A stretch of 64,000 nucleotides of DNA. Origin: Nitrospirota bacterium. Its GTDB lineage: Bacteria > Nitrospirota > Nitrospiria > Nitrospirales > Nitrospiraceae. The position numbers and the translations under genes are program-made. Positions 38,037-41,332 of this stretch are shown here, one piece after another. The stretch is taken from assembly GCA_963775905.1 (NCBI GenBank), contig CAVZKI010000007.1, forward strand, positions 80,491-144,490. Direction: 5' to 3'. Below the pieces are notes generated by a model, which worked only from the letters and a program-made list of their open reading frames with translations, did no database searches and had not been told where the DNA came from. Each line of letters opens with the position of its first letter. Within the stretch, counting starts at the first letter, position 1.

Positions 38037-38669
38037 TCAGCCTGGAAAGCGGGCCCAGTTGGCATAGGGCTTGATGACATAGAGTTCGTCGAGATCGACC
38101 TGCACTCTCACCCCGGCTTGCGCAAGCAGCTGAGAGACCAGGCGGAGCGGCAGGCCGACCACGGTCGGAAAATCTCCGCCAATGGAATCGATCAGGTCAC
38201 CACCCTCTCCTTGGATCGAGTACGCACCGGCCTTGCCTAGACTATCTCCCGTCGCGAGGTAATGTTCGTGCACGTGTTCATCGAACGGCTTCATCCGAAC
38301 GACGGCCGTGGACAGGGCGACGACGTTTATCGCGCAAGCTGAACAGACGAGCGAGACCGCCGTGCGTACGTGATGATCACGGCCGGCCAGGCGCCGAAGC
38401 ATCGCGCGGGCCTCCGCCAGATCGGCCGGTTTCCCGAGTACGTCATGATCCAACTCAATCACCGTATCGCTCCCCAGCACGATCGCCTCCGGCTCTTGCC
38501 TCGCGACCGACTGGGCCTTGCCCTGCGCGAAGGACTGCACCTGCTCGATCGCCGGCCGGTCCGCCACCATCCGCTCCTCGAAGGATGGGTGTTTGACGTC
38601 GAATGGGATACCCAGTAGGGCGAGCAACTCGCGACGGCGCGGAGAGGTTGAAGCCAGAATGAGTGGCAT
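38037..38669 (-). CDS. maf: Maf-family nucleoside triphosphate pyrophosphatase
   Basis: MPLILASTSPRRRELL start, GKAGAYSIQG motif. Confidence 0.9.
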   Translation of the reverse strand: MPLILASTSPRRRELLALLGIPFDVKHPSFEERMVADRPAIEQVQSFAQGKAQSVARQEPEAIVLGSDTVIELDHDVLGKPADLAEARAMLRRLAGRDHHVRTAVSLVCSACAINVVALSTAVVRMKPFDEHVHEHYLATGDSLGKAGAYSIQGEGGDLIDSIGGDFPTVVGLPLRLVSQLLAQAGVRVQVDLDELYVIKPYANWARFPG

Positions 38670-39845
38670 CTATAACGTCGGAGAGGGTTCAACGGAAGCA
38701 AGGGATTCAAGCAGCATCTGGTCAGAGACCTCGGTGAGACTCGCGCAATGCATGCGAAAATCGGCGAGCACCTGCTCCAGGTCGGCGACTGAAGAGACTC
38801 GGAACATAGCGGCTCGAAGCGAGGCGGCATGAGGAAACCCTTTGCAGTACCAGCCCAGGTGTTTGCGCATCCGCCGAAACTGGCCCTGTCCACAGGCCGC
38901 TTCGAACCGTCGGGCATGATCGAGCAGCATCTCGAAGCGAACGTCGAGCGGTGGCACCCATGGTTCGGGCCCCTCCTCAGGCCGATGCTGCTGCAGAACG
39001 AGTCGCACCGCCTCTTTCTGCCGAAAGAACCAGGGGGCTCCGAGCGCAGCTCGTCCAACCAACACGCCATCGACTCCAGTGTCCCGCACGCGACGGACGA
39101 CGTCGTGGTAACTGTGCACGTCCCCATTGCCGAACAGCAATGTCCCGCTCCCCCGCACGATCTCCGCCGCCCGGGCAATGGCGTTCCAATCCGCTTCCCC
39201 TCGATACATTTGTTGCAAGGTTCGGCCATGCAGGGAAATGACTGCCGGCTGCTCCATGAGGAGATGTTCGATCCATCGGTCGACGACCACCACGTCGTAG
39301 CCGAGGCGTGTCTTGACGGACAAGGGAATCGTGCGTCGGACGAGCGGGCGGGCATCCTGTCGTTGCTCGTTCATCCGCCAGATCGCCGCCACTCGGCCCG
39401 GTTTAAGCCCCGCTCCCTCAAGGGTCTGACCGGCCACCCAATCGGCAATACCCTGTCGAGCGGCCTGCATAATGGCCTGAGCCACATCCGGCGTTCGGAT
39501 CAGCCCCGCTCCTGATCCGGATGAGGCCACACTCCGCGAGGGACAGCCCATGTTGATATCCAATCCATCAAACCCCAATTCACACACGGCATGAGCGGCC
39601 TGATAGAAGAGGTCCGGTTCTTTCCCATAGAGCTGGGCAACAATCGGTCGTTCAGCCTCATGATAGATGAGGGAGTCCAACAAGAACTCCGGTCCCCGGC
39701 AGACGTCATGCACATGCGTGAACTCCGTGAAGGAAACATCCGGCTTGCCGTGCATCGCCACGGTATGGCGAAACGTCGCATCGGTGACCCCATCCATCGG
39801 CGCCATCCCGATGATCGGTCTGGTGAGTGACTGCCAGAAACTCAT
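38670..39845 (-). CDS. dus: tRNA-dihydrouridine synthase
   Basis: IIGMAPMDGVTDATFR, LDINMGCP and HGRT motifs of the Dus family. The stop abuts the maf start. Confidence 0.88.
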   Translation of the reverse strand: MSFWQSLTRPIIGMAPMDGVTDATFRHTVAMHGKPDVSFTEFTHVHDVCRGPEFLLDSLIYHEAERPIVAQLYGKEPDLFYQAAHAVCELGFDGLDINMGCPSRSVASSGSGAGLIRTPDVAQAIMQAARQGIADWVAGQTLEGAGLKPGRVAAIWRMNEQRQDARPLVRRTIPLSVKTRLGYDVVVVDRWIEHLLMEQPAVISLHGRTLQQMYRGEADWNAIARAAEIVRGSGTLLFGNGDVHSYHDVVRRVRDTGVDGVLVGRAALGAPWFFRQKEAVRLVLQQHRPEEGPEPWVPPLDVRFEMLLDHARRFEAACGQGQFRRMRKHLGWYCKGFPHAASLRAAMFRVSSVADLEQVLADFRMHCASLTEVSDQMLLESLASVEPSPTL

Positions 39846-41332
39846 CGGGTTCGCTCCAGCTCCATCACCGGTTCTCCCACTTCATTCGCCTGGGCATAGG
39901 CCAGGCGCAAGCTGTCGCATTCCTGTTGTACGCAGACACGTACGTCCGGCGCACGCTCCGTCACAAATTCGAGAAACCGTTCGATCTTGAGTAGGAAGAA
40001 ATCATACGAGTGCGTGAGCGGTCGTGGTGACCGAAACCAGAAAGCCACGAACTCTGTCAGGCAGAGGCCCCGCTCCGCTAAAGTCCGGCAGGTTTGCGGA
40101 AACATCTCTGCAAGGTCTCCTCCCCAATGGAGAATCTCGTGCGAAACGTAGGACGCGCGGTACCGTGTTAAACCGGTCTCCTCTGCAGCCGTTTCCTGCC
40201 ACTCCGGGCCTGTCAGGGGGGCTTGTCCCGAGATGATTTGCGCGTAGCGCGCATAGTCGTCGCGCAACTGCAGTCGATCAGACTGGCGCACAGGCTCCTG
40301 GACTGATGCTGGACGAGGCGTCAGTCCCATCAACGGTTCTACAGCCCTTCCTCTGGCCATCGTCTGCTGAACGAGGGGGGAGAAGCACCGGACGGCCTCT
40401 GCATACTCCTCCACAATCATCTCGATCGGTTTGGTGTCCACTTCAAGTGCCACCGCCCGGAGGCTGACGAGGTTCGAATGGGCCAGAACCTGTTCGAGCA
40501 TGGTGAAGAGGATTGACGGAATCGGGGCGGCATGGGCGTCGATCCATTCAGGAAGCTCCTCTCCCCCCTTTGGCTCACCAACCGACTCATGGCAGGCCAA
40601 CCCCGCTACGTGGATTTCTACGACCCGTTCCAGGGGAAATCCGTCGAGGAATTCCCCGACGAATCGTTCAAGAGATATCCTTCGGCAGGCGGCGGTATAG
40701 CGATAGACCGTCCAGAGGTGTCCGATATCCAGCACAAGACCGCAGGGCACCAACGCTGTGACGAGCCCAAAAAAGTGGGGAATCGGTATCGTGCCGGCGG
40801 AAAAATATGTGAGCGGCGGCATCTCCAAGAGAAAGAGCGGCGCGGCCCCGTCCGCTCGGCGACCCTGCCGATCCATCGCCTGCTGAACCGTCGCGATATT
40901 TGCCGCTACCACCTCGGCGCTCAACCGCGTAAATAATGGAGGGACATATGTGCCAAACGAGTAGCCCGCCATCTGCTTCATCGCACATTCATGATTCAGC
41001 CAGAGACTCTGTATACTATTGAGTTGCGTAACCATTTCGTCGACGTCCTGCTGAAAGAACGGAGACTCTTGAACGTCCGGCTGGGTGATCCACAGGCCTT
41101 CCCCGTGATACGCCAGCGGTATATCCGGCACAGCCTGTCGAACCGTTGTCAGTGCGGTCGTCGTTGCCTTAAAGACTTCGAGATAGCCTGGCTGGAGTCC
41201 TCGCTCCCTAAGCTTGTTCACCAGCTCGAACAGATCGGGAGAATAGACGTCGACTGACAGCCCCATCCCCTGTGGAGGGATTTCCCCGAGGCGACGCTGA
41301 AAGTCCTGTTGAACGAAATCGGGATCAACCAT
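39842..41332 (-). CDS. MNIO (DUF692) family enzyme fused to a DUF2063-like C-terminal domain
   Basis: DUF692-type metal-ligand pattern AYHGEGLW, WLNHEC, FLLEMPP, LVLDIGHLW, EIHVAG, ALEVDT. The C-terminal 135 aa or so (…YRASYVSHEILHWGGDLAEMFPQTCRTLAERG…FLLKIERFLEFV) is DUF2063-like. The stop overlaps the dus start (ATGA). Confidence 0.75.
   Translation of the reverse strand: MVDPDFVQQDFQRRLGEIPPQGMGLSVDVYSPDLFELVNKLRERGLQPGYLEVFKATTTALTTVRQAVPDIPLAYHGEGLWITQPDVQESPFFQQDVDEMVTQLNSIQSLWLNHECAMKQMAGYSFGTYVPPLFTRLSAEVVAANIATVQQAMDRQGRRADGAAPLFLLEMPPLTYFSAGTIPIPHFFGLVTALVPCGLVLDIGHLWTVYRYTAACRRISLERFVGEFLDGFPLERVVEIHVAGLACHESVGEPKGGEELPEWIDAHAAPIPSILFTMLEQVLAHSNLVSLRAVALEVDTKPIEMIVEEYAEAVRCFSPLVQQTMARGRAVEPLMGLTPRPASVQEPVRQSDRLQLRDDYARYAQIISGQAPLTGPEWQETAAEETGLTRYRASYVSHEILHWGGDLAEMFPQTCRTLAERGLCLTEFVAFWFRSPRPLTHSYDFFLLKIERFLEFVTERAPDVRVCVQQECDSLRLAYAQANEVGEPVMELERTR

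Follow-up and report, generated by a model that had tools for sequence, protein, structure and literature searches.

What does a multinuclear non-haem iron oxidase (MNIO) modify when no substrate peptide is encoded beside its gene? To our knowledge, every known MNIO tailors a peptide encoded next to the gene of the enzyme itself. The question is raised by a 496-residue protein (P0001) encoded in a 64,000-nucleotide stretch of a Nitrospirota genome of the family Nitrospiraceae (GenBank assembly GCA_963775905.1, contig CAVZKI010000007.1, positions 80,491 to 144,490), which we call the window. An original prediction, made from the letters of this stretch alone, described an MNIO (DUF692) joined to a DUF2063-type partner in one chain, in a tight operon with dus and maf, and suggested that either the substrate is encoded elsewhere or the enzyme acts on a different class of substrate. 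The reading that we favour, and hold to be moderately probable as a whole, is that the protein is an orphan, partner-fused MNIO of a Nitrospirota-specific clade, which likely modifies a peptide or protein with O2, whose substrate is encoded elsewhere in the genome, and whose position before dus and maf is secondary. Coordinates of the features discussed are collected in Table 1.

The N-terminal domain is a divergent MNIO/DUF692 barrel, as had been proposed. In the hidden Markov model (HMM) check, PF05114 matches residues 54-314 with 50 bits against a cut-off of 25, and the gene is the only one with this domain in the genome. The fold agrees. An AlphaFold2 model of the full-length fusion, built on 21 relatives, reaches a predicted local distance difference test (pLDDT) score of 90 and a predicted TM-score (pTM) of 0.91. 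In a Foldseek search, TglH is the top match of the barrel (E 7e-11) and MbnB and the DUF692 protein 3BWW also match; the probability is 1.0 for 8HCI_B, 7DZ9_A, 3BWW and 7TCR_A, with target-normalised TM-scores of 0.70-0.78. A profile search of solved structures returned MNIO barrels only. None of the NCBIfam equivalogs BufB, ApyH, HvfB and ChrH is reached, their scores being 42, 38, 24 and 16 bits against cut-offs of 310-600. Across 21 relatives, which share 29-52% identity with the window protein, no change is seen at H76, E115, E170, D202, H205, H241, D265, H267 and E297. In HMM alignments D202, H241, D265 and H267 pair with identical residues in 3BWW and/or 8HCI, and E170 pairs with an identical residue in 3BWW. 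By comparison with the MbnB and TglH structures these invariant residues are candidate metal ligands, and the iron site of the barrel appears to be intact.

The C-terminal domain is linked to the DUF2063 partners by structure and not by HMM evidence. No Pfam family matches residues 310-496 at E values up to 10, nor does any match nine stand-alone homologues at the same threshold, save one chance WCX row; PF09836 finds nothing over its cut-off across the genome, its best match having 14 bits and lying at another place. The DUF2063 label given originally thus fails on HMM evidence, but it holds at the level of the fold. A model of this domain alone has a pLDDT of 88 and consists of helices only. 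Foldseek gave no match to it in the PDB at E ≤ 0.001; TglI had the highest TM-score and probability in that search, and the other rows were unrelated. When the model was aligned exhaustively against 48,161 representative chains, the first rank was taken by 3DEE_A (NGO1945, the DUF2063 type structure; Z 6.5, root-mean-square deviation 2.8, 83 residues), with the match confined to residues 31-117 of 3DEE, its DUF2063 part. The second rank was 8HCI_C (TglI; Z 6.2, 125 residues), and MbnC (7DZ9_C; Z 4.5, 105 residues) came at rank 21. The weight lies in the identity of the proteins ranked, three different MNIO partners of which two hold the first ranks, and not in the modest Z-scores. By its predicted structure, the C-terminal domain is a DUF2063-like partner of the PME-type 2 kind. 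As described by Leprevost and colleagues, PME-type 2 partners are DUF2063-like, are missed by the Pfam signature and are recognised via 3DEE and TglI, and some are too short for an RRE, the leader-binding element (PMC12452194). The domain described here shares the short helical DUF2063-like fold without the Pfam signature, and its split relatives likewise encode it after the MNIO gene. It differs in that the partners described there are proteins of their own, whose genes follow that of the MNIO within clusters for ribosomally synthesised peptides modified after translation (RiPPs), and the fusions that were found by text search in PMC12452194 do not include one of an MNIO with its partner.

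The protein is a true enzyme-partner fusion, because relatives encode its two parts as separate adjoining genes. An exhaustive sequence search recovered stand-alone homologues of 139-147 amino acids that start with a Met just before the domain. In two split lineages, a gene for an MNIO of 309-317 residues is followed by a gene for a partner of 143-147 residues, with an overlap of 4 nucleotides or a gap of 5. These pairs were recovered in independent assemblies, and the split forms end and restart within the linker of the fused protein. That catalytic and partner-like domains lie in one protein, as first claimed, is therefore supported both by structure and by the split relatives. In a maximum-likelihood tree made from the barrel domains the family is monophyletic (support 100/100) and set apart from other MNIOs by a long stem, and its branching within Nitrospirales agrees with taxonomy. 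One split pair is sister to a fused form (support 100/99), which implies repeated change between the split and the fused state.

Comparison with known systems shows both the likeness and the distance of this protein. Among the closest is TglH-TglI of the 3-thiaglutamate pathway in Pseudomonas syringae (PDB 8HCI/8HI7): TglH heads the fold matches of the barrel, most of the C-terminal domain is covered by TglI, which ranks second among its matches, and in both systems an MNIO goes with a helical partner that lacks the Pfam DUF2063 signature. TglH and TglI, however, are two proteins encoded beside the substrate gene TglA, whereas here there is one chain and no substrate gene nearby, and sequence identity to the window protein is 8-15%. 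As for the systems BufB-BufC and HvfB-HvfC, the NCBIfam model that the barrel matches best is BufB, and the C-terminal domain has the DUF2063 domain of NGO1945 as its top structural match; in contrast, the barrel scores 42 bits against the BufB equivalog cut-off of 310, the protein has neither a PF09836 match nor an RRE, and the window genome holds no DUF2282 or EGKCG precursor. MovX is also a single-chain MNIO with its own accessory domain and no need of a partner; that domain, however, is a winged helix-turn-helix and unlike DUF2063, and MovX belongs to a methanobactin-like cluster with a precursor. No paper describing the present protein was found in our literature search, nor one with both 'DUF692' and 'Nitrospira'.

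The clade is confined to Nitrospirota and vertically inherited. Among 1.84 billion proteins, 224 cluster representatives match, many of them fragments, and the named matches are mostly Nitrospira, Nitrospiraceae, Nitrospirales or Nitrospiria. In a survey of 300 genomes sampled across the phylum, the gene is present in 50/50 Nitrospiraceae (f1), one copy being broken by three stop codons, in 28/28 genomes of a second family (f18; genomes mostly 1.3-2.7 Mb), in the single genome of f3 and in 3 of the 24 genomes of f2 (0/18 in its genus g2). Outside the order Nitrospirales, none of the twelve larger families has it, with counts such as 0/64, 0/23, 0/12 and 0/11. We infer that f18 is Leptospirillum-like, because NCBI labels two proteins from its metagenome-assembled genomes 'Leptospirales'. 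Nitrospiraceae and f18 are presumably the oxygen-respiring lineages, and the distribution would then suit an O2-using enzyme.

Taken with the family to which it belongs, the protein may be described as a multinuclear non-haem iron oxidase, probably active, with a DUF2063-like helper fused at its C terminus and without a leader-binding RRE. Judged by analogy with all characterised MNIOs, the enzyme most likely modifies a peptide or protein residue with O2 at its iron centre, and its helical domain would serve both to complete the active site and to keep the substrate in place; catalytic activity, the type of substrate and the use of O2 are all argued from this analogy. In Nitrospira the substrate would be an unrecognised one encoded elsewhere in the genome. 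Several points weigh against this reading. Family analogy is all that speaks for a peptide or protein substrate. Z-scores of 6.2-6.5 can be reached by chance for helical domains, and the domain model, which ends at about residue 485, contains no winged-helix/beta part of the RRE type. In two lineages the gene belongs to the core, near-universal and present as a single copy, which is unusual for a RiPP enzyme, and such core-gene status would also fit a housekeeping or small-molecule role. Finally, one complete Nitrospiraceae genome has a copy interrupted by three in-frame stops, two TGA and one TAG; this copy is a pseudogene or else reflects a faulty assembly, and if the stops are real the gene would be dispensable at least in that genome.

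No precursor-like ORF lies beside the MNIO gene in the window, where the flanking genes are a divergent CBS-domain gene upstream and dus, maf and the secreted-protein gene orf223 on the other side; the early statement that no small Cys-rich ORF occurs on either side is thereby upheld. Searches of the window genome, which is 85% complete, with DUF2282, TIGR04222 and DUF2063 gave nothing over the cut-offs, and there is no second MNIO. These results agree with the view that no classical precursor is near, and the alternative offered with it, a substrate encoded elsewhere in the genome, remains the best reading. An adjacent precursor gene, by which RiPP clusters are recognised, is lacking in the window and in most other lineages, and f18 alone offers a candidate. 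This is a peptide of about 105 amino acids with a signal peptide, a Pro/Ala linker, and a tail rich in His, Lys and Arg around the invariant core CNHH..YY.RHHRCYP; it is probably metal-binding. In its alignment 32/112 columns are invariant, both Cys included. Within f18 the peptide occurs in 27/28 genomes; outside this family there was one match, a false one due to composition. In 22 of the 27 genomes that have it, its gene shares strand and contig with the MNIO gene and lies 0.3-7.5 kb upstream, and it is found near the MNIO in three local arrangements and four genera. Gene finders often miss or mis-call it; at one f18 locus (L108) the caller gave a 49-residue minus-strand ORF in its place.

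One possibility is that the enzymes of this clade mature secreted peptides that bind metals, much as is known for bufferins or oxazolins, with the His-rich two-Cys peptide as the substrate in f18 and, in Nitrospira, an unrelated and unrecognised counterpart elsewhere in the genome. This would be a more specific form of the reading that we favour, and we think it unlikely. It draws on the recurrence of the peptide near the MNIO across arrangements and genera, and on its restriction to one family with both Cys kept. Bufferin-type MNIO substrates carry Sec signal peptides and Cys targets (PMC12452194). The region is, however, syntenic within f18, so that the proximity may be inherited, and five genes lie between peptide and MNIO in the largest genus. 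In the window genome, as far as its 85% completeness allows, neither a homologue of the peptide nor a similar motif was found, a scan for His/Cys-rich motifs giving chance rows only, and the searches for DUF2282 and TIGR04222 precursors were likewise negative. A complex prediction of an f18 fusion enzyme with its His-rich peptide scored 0.02, which counts neither for nor against the pairing. The single Nitrospiraceae match to the peptide was rejected: it is a Cys-free secreted protein rich in Pro/Ala and in Lys, and the likeness is one of composition only.

Two conserved neighbours of the MNIO gene were also considered as substrates and set aside. The first is a protein of 110 amino acids, Cys-free and helical, which belongs to no known family, shows 87% mean column identity across families and occurs throughout Nitrospirales. 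It was rejected as partner or substrate, being present in 18/18 genomes of the MNIO-negative genus and not found in f18. Its copy in the window genome lies downstream of genes for a molybdopterin oxidoreductase and a 4Fe-4S protein. The second, orf223, is order-wide and was not found in f18, a phyletic pattern unlike that of the MNIO.

A different possibility is that the enzyme acts on a tetrapyrrole, another small molecule or a haem protein and not on a RiPP precursor. One split lineage lies divergently beside a hemE-hemH-hemY operon. In the other, the MNIO and its partner follow, in a tight same-strand string, a gene resembling precorrin-2 dehydrogenase/sirohydrochlorin ferrochelatase and a gene for a 53-residue two-helix membrane protein, which has no counterpart in the window genome. 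MauG-type dihaem peroxidase genes occur within 4-7 kb in three of the split-form contigs. These contexts speak for a tetrapyrrole or haem-protein target, and a metabolic step would go well with a core gene that is distributed over Nitrospiraceae and f18. A missing haem step for the enzyme to fill is, however, not seen: the coproporphyrin route of the window genome appears to have no gap, because hemE, hemH and hemY are present together with two chlorite-dismutase-family genes, which include a ChdC candidate. HemF was not found in this genome, and the score of a HemN-like gene stays under the cut-off. By rough estimate, it is only weakly unusual that two of about seven independent contexts are tetrapyrrole ones. 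All characterised MNIOs that we know of act on peptides, and the retained partner domain fits a peptide. We regard action on a tetrapyrrole or another non-RiPP target as quite unlikely.

The genes downstream of the MNIO do not point to its substrate. The layout had been described correctly in its coordinates, in the ATGA overlap of the MNIO stop with the dus start (cccgATGAgtt) and in the dus stop TAG that directly abuts the maf ATG (ttaTAGATGcca), all of which are borne out by the ORFs and the junction sequences. Dus and Maf score 183 and 181 bits with Pfam, and the dus gene is the housekeeping copy, since it is the sole Dus gene in the genome. Across Nitrospiraceae the block orf298-LOG-CBS / MNIO-dus-maf-orf223 is kept even at 43-57% MNIO identity, so that the dus-maf linkage, whose conservation the original prediction wished to see checked, does hold in this family; it was seen in Nitrospiraceae only, and sister lineages have other neighbours. 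In three Nitrospirales genomes (G028, G219 and G026) dus and maf adjoin without the MNIO, which was not found in one of them and lies at another site in two. The other side of dus is occupied by LOG in G219 and by orf298, the gene after LOG in the window, in G028. These arrangements indicate that the MNIO and the divergent CBS gene were inserted into an older housekeeping gene string, which gave the MNIO its position before dus and maf. The linkage is thus neither kept wherever the MNIO occurs nor is the dus-maf pair dependent on the MNIO, as a functional operon of the three would require. It is secondary, a late accident of gene order, uninformative on function or substrate, and the idea that it hints at a different, RNA-related substrate class is not supported.

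Elsewhere the neighbourhoods vary. In two sister lineages the 110-residue protein lies upstream of the MNIO and an RluF-type pseudouridine synthase downstream, and in one of the two a B12-radical-SAM gene is also beside the MNIO. Of the two f2 genomes examined, one has glutamate synthase genes on the upstream side. The MNIO of f18 lies between a small TPR protein upstream and a lipoprotein followed by cheZ downstream; one f18 genome that was searched has the MNIO and no match to the Dus of the window. In a further contig the MNIO is beside sugar-nucleotide genes. The recurrence of a uridine-modifying enzyme downstream, Dus here and RluF in the sister lineages, is weakly unusual by rough estimate. 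That the MNIO joins Dus and Maf in acting on RNA or on modified nucleotides is very improbable. For it speak the translationally coupled operon kept through Nitrospiraceae even at 43% MNIO identity, the RluF-type rRNA pseudouridine synthase in two sister lineages and the rpsU and DEAD-box helicase genes after one split lineage. Against it stand a dus-maf pair that does without the MNIO in three other Nitrospirales genomes, unrelated neighbours in f18 and no Dus match in the one f18 genome searched, and a Dus in the window that is the only, housekeeping copy; nor is any MNIO known to act on nucleic acid.

In one sister family the MNIO gene is followed by that for the B12-binding radical-SAM protein, which has 730-825 amino acids. 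Even the best matches of this protein are weak; they are P- and C-methyltransferases, the RiPP enzyme ApyD among them. An orthologue with 64% identity exists in the window genome, unlinked to the MNIO. The radical-SAM and RluF neighbours of the sister family were set aside as clues, their orthologues being scattered in the window genome. Dus matches its Pfam and NCBIfam models in two stretches, at about residues 14-134 and 172-365, which indicates an insertion of ~40 residues in its barrel. The spacer of 272 nucleotides between maf and orf223 has a translation that clusters with that of a stretch 12 kb away, and the two are probably a dispersed intergenic repeat of the window and not a gene. 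A search of positions 36000-43000 found no Rfam family, and a scan for promoters and terminators gave counts not above those in shuffled sequence, sites of the type listed upstream of the MNIO gene included.

Table 1. Coordinates of the MNIO locus and of related loci. Positions without a prefix are those of the window; prefixes are our handles for loci (L), genomes (G; G000 is the window genome) and contigs (C).
Feature	Position	Strand	Basis
MNIO-partner fusion gene (P0001), 496 aa	39842..41332	-	ORF list and translation
MNIO (DUF692) TIM-barrel domain, residues ~20-315	40388..41275	-	PF05114, fold, ligand positions
Low-confidence variable linker, residues ~316-349	40286..40387	-	pLDDT 51-65, variable alignment columns
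All-helical DUF2063-like partner domain (predicted) without RRE, residues ~350-485	39878..40285	-	Structure comparison
dus, DusB-like tRNA dihydrouridine synthase, 391 aa	38670..39845	-	Pfam and NCBIfam
maf, nucleotide pyrophosphatase, 210 aa	38037..38669	-	Pfam and NCBIfam
orf223, secreted 223-aa protein of no known family, downstream of maf	37093..37764	-	Syntenic in Nitrospiraceae
Promoter-like site upstream of the MNIO gene, divergent intergenic region	41367..41396	-	Scan
maf-orf223 spacer and its counterpart (probable repeat)	37765-38036; 49733-49978		Clustering of translations
Split-pair loci beside tetrapyrrole genes	L023:1167-3182; L124:3467-6905; L123:6184-7000; L024:2363-3297		
f18 peptide (candidate)	L113:6409-6723; L114:10203-10520; L109:7363-7677; four more f18 loci	+; -; +	
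110-aa protein	L105:7971-8303 (= G000:C15:501973-502302); L015:6054-6383; L111:7588-7917	- (L105)	
B12-binding radical-SAM protein after the MNIO gene	L015:8605-10794; L016:3257-5734	+; -	
B12-radical-SAM orthologue in the window genome	G000:C6:22425-24608		
MNIO gene with in-frame stops, complete Nitrospiraceae genome	G297:C1:2894095-2895548		

MNIOs are a fast-growing enzyme family, and here is a whole clade of them with a fused partner and no adjacent substrate. Its gene behaves as a core gene of those bacteria that are the main nitrite oxidisers in soils, waters and treatment plants, and of a second lineage of the phylum. The pattern points to a peptide product that is dispersed and unrecognised, or else to a new kind of target. 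The search for what it modifies has been narrowed, in that the dus/maf clue is removed, two conserved neighbours are excluded by their phyletic pattern and one candidate peptide is named in f18. It is possible, though we would not expect it, that the clade is the first of the MNIOs with a housekeeping role, modifying a core protein or a tetrapyrrole-related molecule in the Nitrospirota that carry it. If true, such a role would account for a single-copy, vertically inherited gene that nearly all genomes of two lineages carry and that is never met within a classical RiPP cluster.

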